A stretch of 64,000 nt of DNA from Chiloscyllium plagiosum (Eukaryota). The first letter of the stretch is position 1. Every line of letters begins with the position of its first letter. The translations under genes were made by a program, and so were the position numbers. The notes under the pieces were generated by a model. The model saw nothing but the letters and a program-made list of their open reading frames with translations. It had not been told where the DNA came from and searched no databases. Shown piece by piece: positions 1,885 through 59,150 of the stretch. The stretch spans positions 7,297,992 to 7,361,991 of the forward strand of contig NC_057739.1 in the NCBI RefSeq assembly GCF_004010195.1, written 5' to 3'.

Positions 1885-2205
1885 CATAGAGTCAAACAAT
1901 GTGGAAAGAGGCAATTTGGCCCATCAAACCTGCACTGACCTTCTGAACAGCATCCTATCCAGACCCAGTCCTTCACATTCCCATAACCTCCCATTTACCA
2001 TGGCTAACCCACCTGGCTTGCAGATCTCTGGACTCTATGGCATAATAAAGCATGGCCAATCCACCTAACCTGCACATCTTTGGACTGTTGGAGAAAATTG
2101 GAATGCCCAGAGGAATCCCAAGCAGACCCAGGACAATGTGCAAACACAACACAGACAGTTGTCCAACGCTGTAATTGAACCCAGGTTCCTGACGCTGTGA
2201 GGCTT
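1885..2205 (-). mobile_element. HE1-type V-SINE, degenerate
   Basis: gcatggccaatccacctaacctgcacatctttggactg...gtgcaaacacaacacagacag...gacgctgtgaggc. Confidence 0.85.
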
Positions 2206-2487
2206 TTTTCTTTATTCTTTCAAAGGATGGAGGTATCAGGAGGGTTATGTTTCTCCTTGCCTTGCCAGGCCATTTCATAGGACAGTTAAGAATCAACTAC
2301 ATTGCTGTGCAACTGGGGTCATGTATAGAACAGGCTGGGGAAGGATGGCAGATTTCCTTTCCTCAGAAATTTCCCAAACCAGTTTTTGTAACAGTTGATC
2401 GTTCCATGGGCACTGACATTCAAATTTTCTTTATACCCTAGATTATTGAATTGAATGTCAGTTTGCTGCCTGAGCTGGAAGGTTCGT

Positions 2488-2530
2488 TTTCAGACGTTTC
2501 ATCACCATACTCGGTAACATCATCAGTGAA
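2488..2530 (-). ncRNA. Minimal hammerhead ribozyme motif (family C), antisense arm
   Basis: Reverse complement reads ttca-CTGATGA-T-GTTACC-gagtat-GGTGAT-GAAA-CG-TC-tgaa with a 4-bp stem I. Confidence 0.72.
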
Positions 2531-2554
2531 CTTCTGGTGAAGCTTCACTGGAGG

Positions 2555-2596
2555 CTCACTGATGATGTTACCTAGTATGGTGACGAAACGTCTGAA
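2555..2596 (+). ncRNA. Minimal hammerhead ribozyme motif (family C), intact core
   Basis: tca-CTGATGA-T-GTTACC-tagtat-GGTGAC-GAAA-CG-TC-tga: 6-bp stem II, 3-bp stem I, GUC site. Confidence 0.75.
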
Positions 2597-3629
2597 AACA
2601 GACCTCCCAGCTCAGTGAGCAAATTTACATTCAGAAACTCAACTAAAGCTACAAATCTTCTCAAAACTTGCTAATTTATGAATTGAATTTAAATATCACC
2701 AGCTGCCATTAGCTTGGACTTCTGCATTAGTAGCCTAGTTACATTATCAATAAGCTGCTTTCTCCTCTATTGCAGGCAGCTGAATAACAAGGGCATTTTG
2801 CATTAAATAAGGAAACACTGCTCACAAGGTGGGATCAGCCCATTTCATCACTTGCAATTATGATTTTTTTCCATTACAGCATCCAGTTTTTGTGTCAGTG
2901 ATTTCTCCCTGTTAAACCAGTCTGTTTGTAAAACATTTACTTTCTGCCAGTGCTCAAAATACACTGAGTTGCTGGGTGAAGTTGCTCATGAAGGTCCCAA
3001 CCAGAATGCAAAGGAATGTTTGATCACAGTGTTGTGGGTGGGCTGAGAAAACTCACTCCCTGGGAATAGAATAGATGGAGTCTACATATAGCTGCTGCTC
3101 CAATTGTAGGTTGCTTTTCACTTGTATTTGCTGCTGAGAGCTCATGGGGGAGTTATGGGAGAGGAGGGGATGCTGCAAGAGGGGGAGGAAAGGGGAAACT
3201 GCAATCGAAGGAAGGTGAGTATTAGCCAGGGGTAGGAGAGAGAAGAATTCTGTGGCAAAAAGGGATAAGTGAAAGCTGCAATTGGCAAGAGTGGGAGTGC
3301 GTGGATGGGGAGTAAGGCAGGCTGCAGAGTGGATAGAATAGGTGGCTGCAGTGCGATGAGGGTTTAGTTGCAAACCTAAGAACCTGGTCTGCAACAAGAC
3401 AGCTCACCACCACCACCTGAAGGGCAACTAGGGACAGGCAATAAATGTTGGCCAGCCAGCGATGCCCACATCCTGTGAATGAATATATTCTAAAAAAAGA
3501 CGAGAGAACAGTTTACAATCTGTGAACAAAGGAATACACAGCTGACAAAGAATCAGGAAGAGATGATGATTTCTTTGCAAATGAATATGGAATCTCTAGC
3601 TTAAGGCTGCATATTTTCAGGAGTTGCTA

Positions 3630-13400: not shown

Positions 13401-13828
13401 TATGTGTCTAGTGGTGACATTTTGCTGGAGGTGGCGGCCACCTTGTTGGGTTGATGTTGGTGTTGGTGTTGAAGATATACTGGAACAACTTGACAAGGAG
13501 TACTGCTAGTTCTGAGCACAGTCTTTATCACAACACTTTACTGATATTTGAGTGTACAGCCGTTTTTTGATATTGCAATGGAAGGAATTGGAACAGCTAA
13601 ATGCAGTAGGATCTAGTGTTCATTTTCATTTAATTGAAAGGCTTGGATCAATAATTGTTATAGATTAAGTTGGAAAAGCAGATCTGAAGAGACTTTCAGC
13701 TCAGACTAGCTACAAAACTGCATCCATTATGAGGGTATTTTCATGAGCTTCATGGTCTTAAGAATACCATATTAAGACAGCATCTTGATACATAACAAAG
13801 GGTAGATGTCTTCACTTGTGTTCAGAGT

Positions 13829-15590
13829 AGAGAGTGTGGTTCTGGAAAAGCACCGCAGGTCAGGCAACATCCGAGGAGCAGCAGAGTCGACGTTTTAGCC
13901 CTAAGCCCTTCATCAGGAATGAGGCTAGTGGGCCTCTGGGGCTGAGATATATATGGGAGGGGGGTGAGGCTGGGGGGAAGGTAGCTGAGAGTGTGATAGG
14001 TAGATGAAAGTCGGGGAGAAGGTGATAGGGCAGAGAGGAGGGTGGAGCAGATAGATGGGAAGGATGATGGACAGGTGAAGAGGCCAGTGCCGGGTTGGAA
14101 AGTTGGGACAGGGATAAGGTGGGGGGAGGGGAAATGGGGAAACTGGTGAAATCCATACTGATCCTGTGTGGTTGCAGCGTCCTAAGGTGCAAGATGAGGA
14201 CTTCTTCCTCCAGGCAGGTGACTAGGTTTTAGTGATGGAGAAGGCCCAGGACCCCTGCATGTCCTTGGTGGAGTGGGAGGGGGAGTTGAAGTGTTCAGCC
14301 AGGAGGCAGTGGGGTTGGTTGTTGCAGGTGTCCCAGAGATGTTCTTTAAAATGATCTGCAAATTGGTGTCTGATCTCCCCGATGTAGAGGAGACCACATC
14401 GGGTGCAGTAGATGACATTTGTGGAAGTAGAGGTAAATATCTGTCAGAGTGGAAGGATCCTTTGGGGCCTTGGACCGAGGTGAAGGGAGTGGTGTGGGCC
14501 CAAGTTTTGCACTTTTTAGATTAGATTAGATTCCCTACAGTGTGGAAACAGGCCCTTCGGCCCAACAAATCCACACGGAATCTCCAAAGAGCAACCCAGT
14601 CAGATCCATTCCCCTGCATTCACCCCTGACTAATGCACCTAACACTATGGGCAATTTTGCATGGCCAATTCACCTGACCTGTACATCTTTGGACTGCAGG
14701 AAGAAACTGGAGCACCCAGAGGAAACCCACGCAGACACAGGGAGAATGTGCAAACTCCACACAGACAGTTGCCCGAGGCGGGAATTGAACCCGGGCCCCT
14801 GGCGATGTGAGGCAGCAGTGCTAACCACTGAGCCACTGTGCCGCCCAAAAGATTGGATTCCCTACAGCGTGGAAACAGACCCTTCAGCCCAACAAGTCCA
14901 CACCAACCCTCCGAAGAGTAACCACTCAGTCCAATTTCCCTCTGACTAATGCAACTAAGATTATGGGCAATTTAGCATGACCAATTCACCTGACCTGCAC
15001 ATCTTTGGACTTTGAAAAGAAACCTACACAGACACAGGGAGAATGTGCAAACTGCTCACAGACAGTCAGCCAAGGTGGGAATCAAACCCGGGTCCCTGGC
15101 ACTGTGAGACAGAAGTGCTAACCACTGAGCCACCGTGACGCCTAAGGGAGTCATGGAGGGAATGATCTCTCCAAAATGCTGATAGGGCTGGGGAGGGAAA
15201 TATATCCCTAGTGTAGGGATCTGTTTGTAGGTGGCAGAAGGGGTGGAGGATGATGCGATGTGTGGAGGTTGGTCAGGTGGAAGGTGAGGACCAGGGGGGT
15301 TTTGTCCTTGTTGCATTGAGAGGAATGGGGTTCAAAGGCGGAGGTGTGGGAATTGGAGGAGATGCACTGGCTGGGCAATTGCGATCTTTAAAGAAAGAGG
15401 CCATCTGGGATGTTCTATGGTGGAATTGGTCATCCTGGGAACAGATGAGGTAGAGGAATTGGGAATAATAGATGACGACATTTGTGGAAGTACAGGTAAA
15501 TTTCAGTACGGAAGGATCCTTTGGGGCTCTGATCGGTACTTTTCCAGCACCCCACACTCTAATCTCCAGAATCTGCAGTCCTCACTTTCT
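13829..15590 (-). mobile_element. Penelope-like element (family A) with short inverted terminal copy, interrupted by two HE1 SINEs
   Basis: Terminal repeat at 13829-13925 (-) and inverted remnant at 15540-15590 (+). Body has YCTRCGLLYIGE-like and DDQFHHRTSQMASFFKDRN remnants. Probable TSD ttca(c/g)ttgtgttca at 13811-13824 and 15591-15604. Confidence 0.82.
14516..15140 (-). mobile_element. Two tandem HE1 V-SINEs (14516-14848, 14850-15140)
   Basis: Each has the tRNA head (reverse complement GGCACAGTGGCTCAGTGGTTAGCACTGCTGCC), the V-domain (GTGTGGAGTTTGCACATTCTCCC) and a CR1-like tail. Confidence 0.93.
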
Positions 15591-25815: not shown

Positions 25816-26315
25816 NNNNNNNNNNNNNNNNNNNNNNNNNNNNNNNNNNNNNNNNNNNNNNNNNNNNNNNNNNNNNNNNNNNNNNNNNNNNNNNNNNNNN
25901 NNNNNNNNNNNNNNNNNNNNNNNNNNNNNNNNNNNNNNNNNNNNNNNNNNNNNNNNNNNNNNNNNNNNNNNNNNNNNNNNNNNNNNNNNNNNNNNNNNNN
26001 NNNNNNNNNNNNNNNNNNNNNNNNNNNNNNNNNNNNNNNNNNNNNNNNNNNNNNNNNNNNNNNNNNNNNNNNNNNNNNNNNNNNNNNNNNNNNNNNNNNN
26101 NNNNNNNNNNNNNNNNNNNNNNNNNNNNNNNNNNNNNNNNNNNNNNNNNNNNNNNNNNNNNNNNNNNNNNNNNNNNNNNNNNNNNNNNNNNNNNNNNNNN
26201 NNNNNNNNNNNNNNNNNNNNNNNNNNNNNNNNNNNNNNNNNNNNNNNNNNNNNNNNNNNNNNNNNNNNNNNNNNNNNNNNNNNNNNNNNNNNNNNNNNNN
26301 NNNNNNNNNNNNNNN
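25816..26315. other. Assembly gap (500 N), flanked by family-B PLE terminal remnants
   Basis: Run of N; cgacccaaaactttaactttg...gctgcctgatctgctgagtatttctag follows it. Confidence 1.
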
Positions 26316-28951: not shown

Positions 28952-29422
28952 TCAAATCCAAGAACGGCAAAAATCCTGTGGATGCGGAAAATCTGAAGCA
29001 AAAACAGAAAATGCTGGACCTACTCAACAGGTCAGGTATGGGATCATGAAAGGTCTATTGAAAAGTCATTTTAAATTAACTTCTCCAATGCTGACTGACA
29101 GCAGAGCATTTCCAGCAGTCTTTGTTTCTATTTCTTGAGCAGGTGAGCCTGTCCTTTGAAATCTTGCACTGCTGTGTTGTGTTTACAGTAAAACTGAATC
29201 TTTTATGCAACTATTGTGAAATAATTTATGTGGTGCTGATAGAGTTTTTCACAGCACTGAGAGAGAGGAGCTAGGTCTCCTTGAGCACTTGTATCACTGC
29301 CAAGTGGAAGAAGATTCTAATCATATGGGTGTGTGCCAGAAACGGGGAGCTGATCCTGGGGCTCTGGTTGTGGCACAGTGCCAATGCTGTCAGCACAGTA
29401 ACAAGACCGCACCTCTGAATTA

Positions 29423-29656
29423 AGATTAGAGTAGTGCTGGAAAAGCACCGCAGGTCAAGCAGCATCCGAGCAGCTGGAAGGTCGATGTCTTGGGCATAAG
29501 CCCTTCCTCAGGAATGAGAGGATTCCTTCCTGATGAAGGGCTTTTGCCCAAAAAAATCTCGATTTTCCTGCTCTGCGGATGCTGCCTGACCTGTCATGCT
29601 TTTCCAGCACCACTCTAATCTTGACTCCAGTCTCCAGCACCTGCAAGACCCACTTT
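29423..29656. mobile_element. Palindromic family-A PLE mini-element, 15-bp TSD
   Basis: Inverted arms about 29423-29514 and 29527-29623. TSD cgcacct(c/t)tgaatta at 29408-29422 and 29657-29671. Both hammerheads are decayed. Confidence 0.85.
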
Positions 29657-32330: not shown

Positions 32331-35195
32331 GATAAGGTGATATGTGGAGATCGAATTGGATAGGAGATGCTGGGGTAGCACATGAATGAATATTTAGGCT
32401 AACTGGTGAGTATCTCTGCTGCGTATTCTGTTTGATTGGAGGAAGCACATCAACGTTTGAAAAGGCAAGTTGTCTGAGTTATATTTCATCTGTCATATTT
32501 GAGATGGGGCTCAGCTGCCTATCCTGTCCAGTTCATGGTGTGGTTTGCTTTTCTTTCACGCTGAACAGTTACTCGGAAGGGGCTTTGAGTTCACTGATGA
32601 TCTAAATGACATTTTGTGTATTGCAAGGGCTGATTGTCATTGCATGCGCTTGAGTATGGATTAAAGTTTGCTTAGTTCACTGATGATTAAATTCTTCATT
32701 TAATTATCATTTTTTAATTAGGTCTCAGTGCAGCTTTGGGTACATTTTAGTTTATCAACAAATACGGTTGGCTGCTCAGTTATTACCATGGTTATTAAAG
32801 GTCTGTTCTGAGACACTCATACCAAAGAAGGTTAAAAGTTTTATTTGAATGATGCTTGTGACATTTCTGGAGGCGTTCATTCAGCATAACAGCATGGGGC
32901 TTTGTTTCCCTGGTAACAGTGGCCTGAGTCATCTTTCTTGAAAGCTGAAGCATTTTCTTTTGTTATTTTGCTAAATAAGAATGTTCAGAAAATGACGGAC
33001 ACGTGTTTTCCAGAAATTTCTGTGTGTGGTTGAGATCACCATCATCTTTGTGGCAGTAGATGAGGCTCTTTGTTCCCTTCAGAACTGGAAGTGGCTTGGA
33101 GAGCAGCTGCAACATGTGCATCTGAAGAATCGTCCATGGTTGGAGTGTGAGAAAATACATGGCACACTGTGCAACCGAGGATGGTACTGGGAGTGAGGGA
33201 ATGGGTAGCTCGCACTATGAATCTATTTGGAGATTGAGATGGGAAATAGGATTGGGCAGCACACTATGAAATCCCTGGAGATGGGGTTTGGGTTGAAAGA
33301 TTGCTGAGAGACTGGAAACTATGGCAGCTGGAGGAACATGACTATCCATGTACATGAATCAGAAAGCTAACTTGCAGATGCAACAAGTAATTAAGAAAGC
33401 AAATGTTCAGGCAAATGTTTAGGGCTATGGGTTTGAGTATCTCCATGACAGATAGTGAAACTTGAATTCAGTAGAAATCTGGTGTTATAAACCAGCCTAA
33501 TGGTGACCATGCACCATCTGTCAATTGTCATAGCATCTGGTTGATTAATATCCTTCTGAGTAGGATATCCAGCATCCTTACCTGGTCTGGTCTACATGTG
33601 ACTCCAGATTCACATAACTGCCATCTGGCCAATTAGGGATGGACAATAAATACTGCCAGGTCAGTGTGAGTGAATGAAAAAAGCACTGATCTTAACACTA
33701 GCTATTGTGGATCTTGATGAAGCCACACCTGATGTTTTGTCAACAATTTAGAACTTGGAGAAACCTTGTAGAAATTGCAACAGAGATTCACTAGACTAGG
33801 TACTGGTGAGTAGAGTTGACCTTTAACCTCTAAGAATTAGAATAATAATTGATCATGGGGAGCTTTAAAGTTTTGGTCACAGCCTTCAAATAAGACGTCA
33901 GTCCTTTAGGACTGCAATAAAACCTATCTTTATTCAAAGTGTTGTGAATCTTCGGATTGTCTGTTGTAGGGAGCTGTGAGTGCTCATTGTTGGTGTTTAT
34001 ACAAGACAGAGCTCAATGCTGTGGATGTTAAGGGAATTGACAGATGAGGAAAAGCATAGGAAGATGAAGTTGATGTAGAAATGTCAGACGAGATATTGAA
34101 TTGTAGTGCAGGCTTGACGGGTTGAGTGACCTACTCCAAATCCAATTTCTTTTCTTCTGGAAAGGAACTGTAAACTCTATTGAGGATGAAGTTAAGTTCA
34201 TGTGATGGGAAGCACAGTAATGGTCTGGGGATGTTGAAATGAGTTCTGTTTGGAAAGGGTCTTTCCCCTTGTTGATAGCTGGTAATTGTAGGGAATTCTA
34301 TAATTAGGGGGAATAGATAGTATCCTTTGTAAGCAGCATCAAGAGTCCCGCATGGTGTGTTGGTGCGGGACACCTCTGACCAGCTTAAAAGGGGATTGCA
34401 GAGGGAGGAGGAGGATCAAGTTGTTGTGGTCCACATCAAACCAAAAAACATAGGCAAGACTAGGAAAGAGGACCTCCTCAGGGGTTATCAAGAGCTAGAA
34501 GCCAAATTAAAGATTATGCCCCCAGGTCCTCAGGAGGCATAATCTGTGGATTACTGCCTGAGCCACATGCAAATTGGCATTCGGACACAAGAATAAACAA
34601 AGTAATCACATAGCTAAAAGTGTGGTGTGGGAAAGAGGGGTTCCTTTTCATGGGGCACGGGCATCAGTATTGGAACAGGAAGGATCTGTACTGTTGGTAC
34701 GGTCTCCACCTGAACCGAGCTGGGGCCAGTATTCTAGCAAAAAGGTGGTCAACAGGACTTTAAACAAGGAAGTGGAAGGGAAGAGTAAAACTCCTAAAAA
34801 GTGTAATGACCAATGGGAAGCAAAACTGCAGGTTAATGTCTGTAGGGCTGGACTCCACATTGAAAAATATGGAAAAAAAGAAAAGAAAGGAGAACTCAGG
34901 TTATTTAAATTTCCAGCACACAAAGTAGGACCGAGTGTTTGGAAAAGGTTAGGAATCAAACTTCAAACACTCTGCATAAATGATTAACAATGAGAAGAGG
35001 GATGTTCAGTACAGGACTGAAGATGTATCTGAATGTGAGCAGTATAAGAAAGAAGGTAAATGAGCTGGTGGCACAAACTGAAATTGGCAGGTATGATGTA
35101 GTGGGCATTACGGAGACGTGGCTGCAAGGGGATCAGGACTTAGAGCTAAACATGCAAAGCTATATGTCCTATTGAAAAGACGAGGGGGTGGGGTT

Positions 35196-35359
35196 AGAAT
35201 GGTTCTGGAAAAGCATAGCAGGTAAGGCAGCATCTGAGGAGCAGGAACATCGACGTTTTGGGCAAAAGCCCTTCATCAGGAATGGAGACCATCAGGAATT
35301 CCAGCACCACTCTAATCCTGACTCTGGTTTACAGCATCTGCAGTCCTCACTTTTGCCTA
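35196..35359 (-). mobile_element. Family-A PLE mini-element with partial inverted end, perfect 14-bp TSD
   Basis: TSD gagggggtggggtt at 35182-35195 and 35360-35373. Hammerhead reverse complement attcCTGATGAagggcttttgcccAAAACGTC (G12 to A). Confidence 0.87.
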
Positions 35360-35520
35360 GAGGGGGTGGGGTTGCCTTGTTAGTGAAAAATGACATTAAA
35401 TCAATAGCAATAAACAAAGTAGGGTCAGATGATGTAGAATCTGTGTGGGTAGAGTTGAACCGTAAAGGTGAGAAAACCATAATAGGAGTTATCTACAGGC
35501 CTCCAAACAGTAGTCAGGAT

Positions 35521-36353
35521 CTGGATATCTGTTTGCTTGCTGAGCTAGAAGGTTTGGTTTTAGATGTTTTGTCGCCATGCTAGGTAACATAATCAGTGAG
35601 CCTCCAGATGAAGCACTGGTGGCGTGGCCCACTTTCTATTTGTGTTTAGGTTGATGATGTCATTTCCTGCTCTTTTTCTCAGGGGGTGGTAAATGGGATC
35701 CAAGTCAATGTGTTTATTGATAGAATTGGAATGCCATGCTTCTAGGAATTCTTGTGCGTGTCTCTGTTTGGCTTGTCCTGGGATGGGTATGTTGTCCCAG
35801 TCGAAGTGGTATCTTTTCTCACCTGTATGTAACCATACTCGTGAGAGTGGGTCAATTCTTTTTGTGGCTAGTTGATGTTCACGTATCCTGGTGATTAGTT
35901 TTCTGCCTGTCCAATGTAATGTTTGTTACAGTACTTACAAGGTATTTTGTAAATGACATTAGTTTTGCTTGTTGTCTGTATAGGATCTTTCAAGTTCATT
36001 AGCTGCTGTTTTAGTGTGTTGGGGGAGTTTATGGGCTACCATGATGCCAAGGGGTCTGAGTAGGCTGGCAGTCATTTCCGAGATATCTTTGATGTAGGGG
36101 AGAGTGGCTAGGGTTTCTGGAATGTGTTCTGTCTGCTTGTTGGGGTTTGTTGCTGAGGAATCAGCGGACTGTGTTCATTGGTGCCCGTTCTTTGTGAATA
36201 CACTATATGTGATTTTCCTCTGTGCTGTAGGGTGTGGTGGCTCATTGAAATAATGTTCTATTATTTCCACCACACACTGCACTGAAACGTCTAAAAAGGA
36301 ACCTTCCAGCTCAGCGAGCAAACCTTGAGCTACAAACTTGCTCAAAACTCACT
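35521..36353 (-). mobile_element. Penelope-like element (family C), GIY-YIG endonuclease remnant with inverted termini
   Basis: Reverse complement about 35970-35720 reads TNVIYKIPCKYCNKHYIGQ..GRKLITRIREHQ..FDWDN..FLEAWHSN (frameshifted). Termini match 2457-2675. Possible TSD agtagtcaggat / aataatcaggat. Confidence 0.85.
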
Positions 36354-36424: not shown

Positions 36425-36548
36425 TATGAAGGGCTTAAGCCTGAAAAGTTGACTCTCCTGCTCGGATGCTGCCTGACCTGCAGTGTTTTTCCAGTGCCAC
36501 ACTTTTCGACTCTGACTCTCCAGTGTCTGCAGTCCTCATTTTCTCCAA
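36425..36548 (+). mobile_element. Family-A PLE terminal fragment
   Basis: tgaagggcttaagcctgaaaagttgactctcctgctcggatgctgcctgacctg...ctgcagtcctca. Confidence 0.8.
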
Positions 36549-48967: not shown

Positions 48968-49283
48968 TCATAGAATCAGAGAATTCCTACAGTGTGGAAG
49001 CAGGCCATTCGGCCCTTCAAGTCCACACTGACCCTCAGAATAGCATTCCACCTAGACCCTGTGACCCTGCATTTCTCATAGCTAAGCCACCTAGAGTGCA
49101 CATCCCTAGACACTTTGGACAACTTAACATGGCCAGTCCACCTAACCTGCACTCTGAGGAAACCCATGCAGACAAGGGGAGAATGTGCAAACTCCACACA
49201 GACAGTTGCTTGAGGGTGGAATTTAAACCATGTCCCTGCTGCTGTGGGGCAGCAGTGCTAACCACTGAGCCACTGTGCTGCCC
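48968..49283 (-). mobile_element. HE1 V-SINE
   Basis: Head at about 49283, tail at about 48970. Confidence 0.9.
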
Positions 49284-49414
49284 CAATCTATAATGCCCAA
49301 ACAACTTTATATGCTGCTTACTCAAATGTTATGTTCTTGGTAAACTATTTACCTCTTCAATACAGTACAGATTAATGCTGTAGACACAAAAGGCAGAAAA
49401 GTGCACAACATTTG

Positions 49415-49770
49415 TGCAGCACAATGGCTTAGCGGTTAGCACTGCTGCCTCACAGTGCCAGGGATCTGGGTTCAGTTCCAGCCTTGGGTGACTTATCTGT
49501 GTGGAGTTTGCACCTTCTCCCCATGTCTGCGTGGGTTTCCTCTGGGTGCTCTGGTTTCCTCCCATAGTCTAAAGATTTGCAGGTTAGGTGGATTGGCCAT
49601 GCTAAATTGCCTACTGTATTCAGGCATGTACAGGTTAGTTGGGTTAGCCATGGGAAATTCAGGGTTGGGGGATAGGGTAGGGGGATGGATCTGACTAGGA
49701 TGCACTTCAGAGGATTGGTGGGGACTTGAAGGGCCAAATGGCCTCTCTTTCACATTAAAGGGATTCTATA
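49415..49770 (+). mobile_element. HE1 V-SINE
   Basis: tggcttagcggttagcactgctgcctcacag, V-domain and tail. Confidence 0.9.
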
Positions 49771-50342
49771 ATTTGTAATTGGTTAGTTGACATCAACAAT
49801 TACAATTTCATTGCCATGTTAGATCTGTTGCTACATTTCTCTTTGCTGCATTCTCGAAATCAGGCTGGAGCAAAACTTCAGATCTTTAAATGTTCCCTTG
49901 TGCACTCACCCTCCACGTACAGTTTAATGAGCTTTATCCATTGATTTTTTATTGGAACACCATCTTGTAAATACCATATTGTGCTTACTCCAGGTTTCAA
50001 AAAAAACACTCTCTGCTCAACTCATAAGGGATTGTTCCAGATCCATATCTCCAGCCTTTCACTCCATTATTTAACTCTGTGCCTGCAGAATTTATTGAAT
50101 ATTTAGGTTTCGGTAGCAAGTGCTTTGGTTGTCTCGTATATGAATCATAGCCTTTTTCACAGGATGTGGGTATTTCAGGCACTGAACATGTCATTCATGT
50201 AATCCGGACAGAGCCCTTGGATTTTTCAGTAAAATCTCTGTCACGCGCTCTTCCTTGCGTGCTCTCTCTCCCTCCCTCGAGCTCTGTCTGTCTGTCTCTC
50301 GCTCTCCCTCGAGCTCTGTTTCTCTCTCTCACCCCCTTGGGC

Positions 50343-50894: not shown

Positions 50895-51143
50895 NNNNNN
50901 NNNNNNNNNNNNNNNNNNNNNNNNNNNNNNNNNNNNNNNNNNNNNNNNNNNNNNNNNNNNNNNNNNNNNNNNNNNNNNNNNNNNNNNNNNNNNNNNNNNN
51001 NNNNNNNNNNNNNNNNNNNNNNNNNNNNNNNNNNNNNNNNNNNNNNNNNNNNNNNNNNNNNNNNNNNNNNNNNNNNNNNNNNNNNNNNNNNNNNNNNNNN
51101 NNNNNNNNNNNNNNNNNNNNNNNNNNNNNNNNNNNNNNNNNNN
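50895..51143. other. Assembly gap
   Basis: Run of N. Confidence 1.
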
Positions 51144-57827: not shown

Positions 57828-59150
57828 TAGAGTCAAAGAGTTGTACAGTATGAAAACAGACTCTTTGGACCAACTCATTCATGCAGACCACATATCTTAA
57901 ATTAATCTAGTCCCATTTACCAGTATTTTGCCCATATCCTTCAACCTTTCCTATTCAAATAACCAACCAGATGGCTTTTAAATGTTGCAACTGTATCAGC
58001 CTTCACCATTTTCTCTGGCAGTTCATTCCATGCATGGACTGTCCTCTGCATGAAGAAATTATCACTTAGGTCCCTTTTAAATCTTTTCTCTCTCACTTTA
58101 AATCTAATTTTGGACTCCCCTACCCTGGGGAAAAAGACATTGGGTATTCACAATTTTATAAACCTCGATAAGGTTCTCAGCCTCCAATGCTCCAAGGTAA
58201 ATAGGCCCAGTTTTTCAGCCTTTCCCTGTAGCTCAAACCCTCCAACCCTGGCAACGTCTTTGTCAATCTTTTCTGCACCCTTTCAAGTTTCACAATGTCT
58301 TTCCTATGGCAGGAAGACCAGAATTGAATGCAGTATTCCAAAAGTGGCCTAACCAATGTCCTGTAAAGCCACAAAATGACATCCCAACTCCTATACTCAA
58401 TGTACTGACCAATAAAGGCAAGTGTACCAAATGTTGTGATCACTACCCTATCTGCCTGTGACTCCACCTTTAAGGAACTATGAACCTACACACCAAGATC
58501 TGTACCACAAGATCTCATTGTTTGGCAACACTCCCTCGGAGGCGAAAGTGAGGACTGCAGATGCTGGAGATCCGAGTCAAGATTAGAGTGGTGCTGGAAA
58601 AGCACAGCAGGTCAGGCAGCATCCGAGGAGCAGGAAAATCAATGTTTTGGGCAAAAGCCCTTCCTGGTTAAGGGCTTTTGCCCAAATCGTCGATTTTCTT
58701 GATCCTCGGATGCTGCCTGACCTGCTGTGCTTTTCCAGCACCACTCTAATCATCCTGCCCTGATTTGCCTTACCTAAATGCAACATCTCACATTTATCTA
58801 AATTAAATTCCATCTGCCACTCATCGGCCCATCTGCTCAAGGTCTTATTGTACTCTGAGGTAACTTTCTTCACTGTACACTATGCCATCAATTTTGGTAT
58901 CATCAGCAAATTTACTTATTATTCCTCCTACATTGACATCCAAAACATTTATATAAATGTCAAAAAGCAGTGGACTCAGCACCAATCCTTGCAGCACACC
59001 GCTGGTCATAACTCTCCAGTCCGAAAAACAACCCTGCACCACTACTCTCTCTGTCCTACCTTCAAGACAATTTTATGTCCAAATGGCTTGCTCTCCTAAA
59101 TTCCGTGTGATCTAACCTTGCTAACCAGTCCACCTTGTTGAATGCCTTGC
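57828..59150 (-). mobile_element. CR1 LINE 3' fragment with PLE insertion
   Basis: SGVLQGLVLSPLLFDIYIN..SKFADDTKI; LVRPLLEYCIQFWS..LERVQKR; tail at about 57830. Confidence 0.92.
58539..58752. mobile_element. Palindromic family-A PLE mini-element
   Basis: gattagagtggtgctggaaaagcacagcagg... (58581-58663) is inverted against ...cctgctgtgcttttccagcaccactctaatc (58670-58751), with loop cctggtt. Confidence 0.87.

Follow-up and report, generated by a model that had tools for sequence, protein, structure and literature searches.

Two head-to-head Penelope-like ends in a shark genome: a palindromic insert probably formed by one very short integration

The insert at 2457-2674 of the window (the whole stretch of 64,000 nucleotides analysed here, from Chiloscyllium plagiosum) is made of two ends of a Penelope-like element (PLE), joined head to head and only one of them tailed, and most likely arose from a single, very short integration; its mirror arm was likely built on the spot and not copied from a palindromic parent. 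The insert measures 218 bp and is bounded by 10-bp direct repeats, TGAATTGAAT, exact at 2447-2456 and 2679-2688, in agreement with the original prediction of an insert of about 220 bp between such repeats. These repeats can be extended to 15 nt at 87% identity (2442-2456 and 2674-2688), and the combination of a short target-site duplication (TSD) with an A/T-rich site is that of a PLE insertion. The features of the locus and of its longer relative are the following.

2256-2446, no strand assigned: older host repeat, left part, from depth and joints, limits approximate
2447-2456, plus strand: left TSD copy, 10 bp exact, may extend to 2442/2443
2457-2542, minus strand: left arm, inverted tail-less pLTR end, translating to a PLE C-terminus; outer end uncertain by 5 bp
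2489-2530, minus strand: minimal type I hammerhead motif of the left arm, with CTGATGA at 2526-2520, GAAA at 2500-2497 and GTC at 2495-2493
2538-2547, no strand assigned: fold-back centre TGAAG/CTTCA, no spacer, possible 2-nt GC overlap
2543-2633, plus strand: right arm, direct pLTR end, with the last ORF codons and a stop at 2573-2575 in one frame
2556-2595, plus strand: minimal type I hammerhead motif of the right arm, with CTGATGA at 2559-2565, GAAA at 2585-2588 and GTC at 2590-2592
2634-2674, plus strand: one-sided 41-bp PLE tail, at family depth, aligning with the tail at 36324-36353
2679-2688, plus strand: right TSD copy, may begin at 2674/2675
2689-2730, no strand assigned: older host repeat, right part, from depth and joints, limits approximate
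35521-36353, minus strand: longer insertion of the same family and layout, its long tail-less arm carrying a broken GIY-YIG ORF end

The inverted repeat arms (2452-2542 and 2543-2633) measure 91 nt each and are 86% complementary, with 13 differences; because 2452-2456 also pairs with 2629-2633, the outer end of the left arm is uncertain to that extent. They meet without spacer at the centre TGAAG/CTTCA. The near-perfect hairpin of about 70 bp that had been predicted was thus recovered as regards the hairpin and its centre, but not its size and perfection, since it extends over about 90 bp. Folded as RNA, the stretch reached a minimum free energy of -130.1 kcal/mol, whereas shuffled sequences averaged -52.7 (z -18.2), with no shuffle out of 200 equalling it. 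The template base at which the arms start is the same for both and lies 16 nt upstream of the hammerhead core. The unmirrored 41-bp tail (2634-2674) extends the right arm only and ends 110 nt past an ATG at 2565, which opens a second frame in this arm, as in the Poseidon element of the anole.

The two flanks of the insert belong to one interspersed repeat, according to read depth and to contig joints connecting 2291, 2308, 2325 and 2363 with 2674-2678. This repeat may be a tRNA-derived, SacSINE1-like SINE, given its resemblance to SacSINE1/Deu. Insertion into an older SINE had been proposed; depth and joints bear out the older interspersed repeat, its identity as a SINE being putative.

By sequence, the arms represent the 3' end (pLTR) of a Penelope/Poseidon retroelement of GIY-YIG type that is present in very high copy number. 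Compared with the element at 35521-36353, whose two ends they match at 76-90% identity, they lack one near-centre base. The original prediction had identified the arms with the terminus of that element; the family was right, that very copy was not. Translated, each arm matches the C-terminus of P0001, a GIY-YIG PLE protein model (residues 353-381), at 72-76% identity, with E-values of 1e-6 and 2e-8, so that the PLE origin already proposed for the palindrome was upheld by both alignment and translation, while the statement that it contains no coding sequence proved too strong. The segment 35608-36259 matched four PLE proteins, up to E 2e-50, and a search with a 110-residue piece of the broken ORF of 35521-36353 retained 18 relatives out of 68 candidates; those with names come mostly from carpet sharks. 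The models P0001, P0004, P0014 and P0017 exhibit RT and/or GIY-YIG motifs and a linker that, judged by eye, has no Zn-finger; as a Zn-finger-free linker is the criterion for Penelope/Poseidon in the accessible text of PMC8557442, we placed the family there. Pfam gave no name to any of the four short broken ORF pieces scanned. Four shark gene models bearing host-gene names (P0002, P0003, P0007 and P0015) carry the GIY-YIG segment of this PLE, either as exonised pieces or through annotation errors.

Four further inverted-pLTR insertions are present within the 64-kb window. The one of the same family, 35521-36353, has a short forward tailed arm at about 36283-36353, a junction different from the centre at 2543 and a candidate 10-bp TSD with one mismatch. 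It sits among LINE-like coding remnants, between ends of a second hammerhead family at 35205-35353 and 36426-36546; these remnants, at 35380-35520 and from 36540 onward, are presumably of CR1/L2 type, which they resemble. The second family, whose core is CTGAAGA (at 143 and 5800), occurs as inverted pairs at 29422-29622, 35195-35353 and 58581-58751, whose junctions differ from one another. A self-search recovered about a dozen of its pieces within the window, and 8 of the 14 matches to one copy start no more than 7 nt from the core start. A longer minus-strand copy of this second family (13822-14440) is weakly GIY-YIG-like at 14273-14440 (match to P0017, E 7e-4) and probably represents its coding parent. 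The window also includes an 800-bp degenerate inverted repeat with 65% self-match (48974-49773) and three assembly gaps (1228-1425, 25816-26315 and 50895-51143; 947 N in all), at which several long ORF calls are gap artefacts.

Contigs from three DNA runs of three species were placed on 2150-3000 (851 bp). We obtained 18,211, 17,550 and 10,249 of them, with depth concentrated on the arms, and the genome probably contains family ends in the tens of thousands. The best-supported loose ends before 2542 (231, 288 and 219 contigs per run) continue into the element body and not into the mirror, the family sequence upstream of the centre thus being different from the mirror. Among the contigs listed from the three runs, none with near-zero differences spans the insert's own centre, which therefore rests on the window assembly. 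An assembly artefact is an unlikely source of the palindrome, as the 13 arm differences speak against it.

Contigs of species B and C link the unique left flank to the left arm (13 differences in 349 and 7 in 326) and the tail to the unique right flank (14 and 16 differences in 350), with only 24 tail letters before the TSD in these right-side contigs. The boundaries of the insert are common to the three species, the orthologous contigs of the two others differing by 2-5%, and the insertion thus predates the species split. The orthologous centre of these two species was not among the pieces listed, and no empty allele of the locus was seen in the three DNA runs. The two arms deviate from the majority letters of the family at separate positions, about 5 of the 13 arm differences lie at CpG, and the differences between the arms are not compensatory. 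This separate drift, the CpG changes and a chance-level survival of the hammerhead cores fit neutral decay, and we infer that this copy has decayed since its insertion without sign of constraint.

The original prediction had opposed a junction unique in the genome, which would mean a one-off inversion, to a family sharing the same centre. We surveyed 2495-2590 through the 24 longest of 16,893 pieces, a selection that favours long gap-free pieces and does not reflect frequencies. All 24 cross the centre, each deviating in 5-18 letters, and are 81-93% alike to the insert. Their net length relative to the window was 0 in 10 and +2 in 5, the remaining 9 being +1, +1, +3, +6, +7, -3, -3, -6 and -10; in the subset of 15 that extend 31 letters or more on both sides of the centre, it was 0 in 5, +2 in 3 and another value in 7. 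The +2 class would fit the same centre in a family variant with one more base per arm, and the recurrence of both 0 and +2 fits the same stop in two variants of the family. Depth at 2541 amounted to 0.054%, 0.042% and 0.36% of the family peak, or roughly 45, 31 and 61 times single-copy depth, a figure that is not a copy number. Left arms were also joined to right arms at other positions, with at least 10 distinct joints (among the 15 of 121 joints and 12 of 33 spacer rows listed). The zero-spacer junction is thus neither unique nor the rule, and recurs at or near the centre at other loci in the three species. A pattern scan of metagenome contigs with 21 nt gave three loci whose likeness is limited to about 25-39 nt around the pattern, and which we treated as chance matches.

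The bridging pieces at other loci show that the junction is not unique. A family copied as a unit would be a MITE-like, non-autonomous palindromic PLE derivative, transcribed and re-inserted as such by the PLE protein. Same or near-same centres at other loci in three species are what it would produce, the depth of some bridging contigs reaches 2-9 times that of a single copy, and pLTR sequences suffice for trans mobilisation in a rotifer according to the accessible part of PMC3846280. The bridging copies are however only 81-93% alike, 9 of the 24 listed have net lengths that are neither 0 nor +2, they represent less than 0.4% of family depth beside many other junctions, and the same layout is found both in the second family and in the longer copy at 35521-36353. 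A 90-bp hairpin would moreover be expected to hinder reverse transcription. We consider such unit copying quite unlikely, although it would also give the high-depth joints that count against building on the spot, namely one centre-bridging contig with a depth of 57 versus about 6.5 for a single copy (about 9 times) and a joint from 2525 to 2565 with a depth of 500 versus 22-28 (about 20 times). These two indicate that certain junctions are common to several near-identical copies, possibly young bursts or small junction-sharing families. A recurrent by-product of integration, with a preferred stop, fits the survey better than a self-spreading family. The longer relative in the window would also be compatible with an initial insertion of that kind whose middle was later lost by cruciform or microhomology-mediated deletion, and microhomology deletions in PLE copies are described in the sections of PMC3846280 available to us, but the same centre would not then be expected at many loci in three species and we hold this origin to be very improbable.

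An inverted pLTR with a one-sided tail and a short TSD is an already published footprint of PLEs. The parts of PMC8557442 at hand describe an inverted 5'-truncated copy adjoining the pLTR and a tail of 30-40 bp, often at one end only, and those of PMC3846280 an inverted pLTR, a 31-bp tail, TSDs of 8-10 bp and abundant head-to-head palindromic junctions. In the available portion of PMC11167929, a Poseidon protein (PAc) cuts and extends both strands at ATT, with uncut RNA as template, and two internal RT start sites bound the tail.

In the reading that we prefer, the endonuclease of the element would nick the A/T-rich target on its two strands, at sites some 10 bp from each other, and each 3' end would then prime reverse transcription on uncut element RNA. 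One cDNA would start at the outer site and include the tail, the other at the inner site and be tail-less. Both would halt at one template base located 16 nt upstream of the hammerhead core and probably corresponding to a preferred 5' end of the element RNA, and the junction between the two cDNA ends would be blunt or rely on a 2-nt GC overlap. Such a preferred 5' end appears to be the simplest cause of the stop, since the latter is symmetric and recurring (compare the starts near the core in the second family). In LINE-1 twin priming, both target strands reportedly prime cDNA, with joining by microhomology, but L1 inversions are said to copy non-overlapping parts of one RNA, whereas the two arms of the insert copy the same stretch. 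Our literature search, with most subscription journals outside its scope, found no report linking the Penelope pLTR to twin priming and no palindromic non-autonomous Penelope element of sharks.

The available text of PMC3846280 favours self-priming, not two-sided priming: after priming on one side only, the cDNA or an antisense template would fold back and prime its own mirror (Arkhipova et al., 2013). This is the published reading of head-to-head palindromic junctions in that same text. A small natural hairpin starts exactly at 2543, and the one-base-shorter variant is present in both arms, as would be expected if one arm had been copied from the other. A snap-back on this hairpin would however lose about 12 nt from the centre, the loose ends show a family upstream sequence without the TTCA required for a zero-spacer centre, and the arrest of the mirror arm at the inner start site would not be accounted for by self-priming alone. 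We therefore regard self-priming as rather unlikely for this insert and retain priming from both sides. A further and tentative extension, which we find somewhat doubtful, is that zero-spacer centres reflect a fixed RNA 5' end run off by both cDNAs while stubs ending at the cut site are copies of ribozyme-cut RNA. The mirror arm is left at 2492 in 4, and at 2491 in 1, of the 10 other joints listed, often with a few extra letters between the arms, and 2492 mirrors T2593, the first base past the predicted hammerhead cut. The 2492 joints could thus record copied ribozyme-cut RNA, a reading confounded by the 20-23 matching letters or so that a joint needs on its short side, which set a detection floor near 2490.

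A scan for CTGANGA...GAAAC gave 5 sites in the 64 kb, two of them in the arms of the insert, and the complete hammerhead core announced for each strand was found, from 2559 on the plus strand and, as its mirror, from 2526 on the minus strand. Both motifs display the CUGANGA and GAAA boxes, a UH site, a helix II and a short helix I, in the order core, one unpaired base, helix II, GAAA, CGTC and helix I of 3-4 bp, with the palindrome ACGU alone as helix III. The plus-strand motif has a 6-bp helix II, a 3-bp helix I and a predicted cut after C2592, 28 nt past the ATG at 2565, which lies inside the hammerhead; that of the minus strand has a 6-bp helix II closed by G-U and a 4-bp helix I. Rfam recovered no hammerhead at gathering score over the window, and none locally at E up to 10.

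That the insert presents a ribozyme whichever strand is transcribed did not withstand the folding computation. With the arms head to head, the antisense arm is transcribed before the core on either strand, the 7 core bases of both strands are all paired at every one of the 5 nascent lengths computed, the probability of helix II is negligible (about 1e-15; 5e-15 or lower), and enforcing the hammerhead fold costs 59.4 and 63.2 kcal/mol. With one motif per strand, the insert has no same-strand partner motif and no accessible fold. The motifs are thus predicted to be blocked by the hairpin and to be passengers of the pLTR. Single minimal PLE hammerheads gave no cleavage and dimers low cleavage in the accessible part of PMC4209133, and that of PMC11167929 reports that the PAc ribozyme depends on the protein, and that insertion in vitro can do without this ribozyme.

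The two intact cores and the boundaries present in three species could suggest that selection has maintained a functional hairpin or a strand-independent ribozyme, but we find this scarcely credible. The probability of leaving all 13 core bases intact by chance is about 0.12-0.28, so that their intactness is no sign of selection, and selection on the cores was rejected on this ground; the fold is disfavoured by some 60 kcal/mol, the arm differences are not compensatory, and the microRNA hits in Rfam are far below gathering score. A microRNA precursor was likewise rejected, the best Rfam score being 46.6 bits versus a gathering score of 90, with hits that reflect the hairpin only. A non-LTR retrozyme was rejected too, as there are no tandem units and no second same-strand hammerhead. 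The hairpin, if transcribed, would be a dsRNA substrate. The polyA single-cell RNA run X21, of which about 2% was read, gave 381 family reads, one of them at 99% identity or more, with mostly zero depth over the unique flank, and run X22 gave no family reads; neither showed RNA specific to the locus, and both are too weak as an expression test.

Taken alone, the locus matters little, being one decayed stub among many family ends. The class of stubs to which it belongs bears on two questions raised in the literature, namely the way in which the inverted half of PLEs is formed and the ability of their weak hammerheads to cleave in vivo, and the distribution of junctions across a shark assembly would be a cheap test of both. 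Should the fixed 5' end and the ribozyme-cut copies be true, shark stubs would preserve in the genome the traces of two-sided priming and of germ-line hammerhead cleavage.

Among known systems, compared here on the accessible text of the papers cited, the EN+ PLEs of Adineta vaga (Pen2a_Av, Pen2_Av and Pen3a; PMC3846280, scheme in PMC8557442) likewise have an inverted pLTR beside a 5'-truncated direct pLTR. They share with the shark insert a one-sided tail (30-40 bp, versus 41), a TSD of 8-10 bp and a palindromic junction. Unlike them, the insert consists of two pLTR ends only, in 218 bp, and its symmetric zero-spacer centre recurs elsewhere. Poseidon of Anolis carolinensis (PAc, PMC11167929) combines an RT with a C-terminal GIY-YIG domain and has its ATG inside the hammerhead, as in the shark family. 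The distance from ATG to cut is 28 nt in the insert versus 26 in PAc, the tail ends at +110 from the ATG where PAc RT starts at +111-118, and both use an A/T-rich target with ATT; unlike PAc, the insert belongs to a shark family and is only a decayed stub. The minimal hammerheads of metazoan PLEs (PMC4209133) share with ours the conserved core, long helix II, unpaired 5' base, short helix I and tiny palindromic helix III, but each strand of the insert offers one motif and its own antisense, hence no same-strand dimer within it. Finally, the non-LTR retrozymes (bioRxiv 10.64898/2026.07.22.740005) are also non-coding, hammerhead-bearing and derived from PLE pLTRs, but they are built of tandem same-strand units, at least 2 of them consecutive, whereas the shark insert is a single inverted pair.
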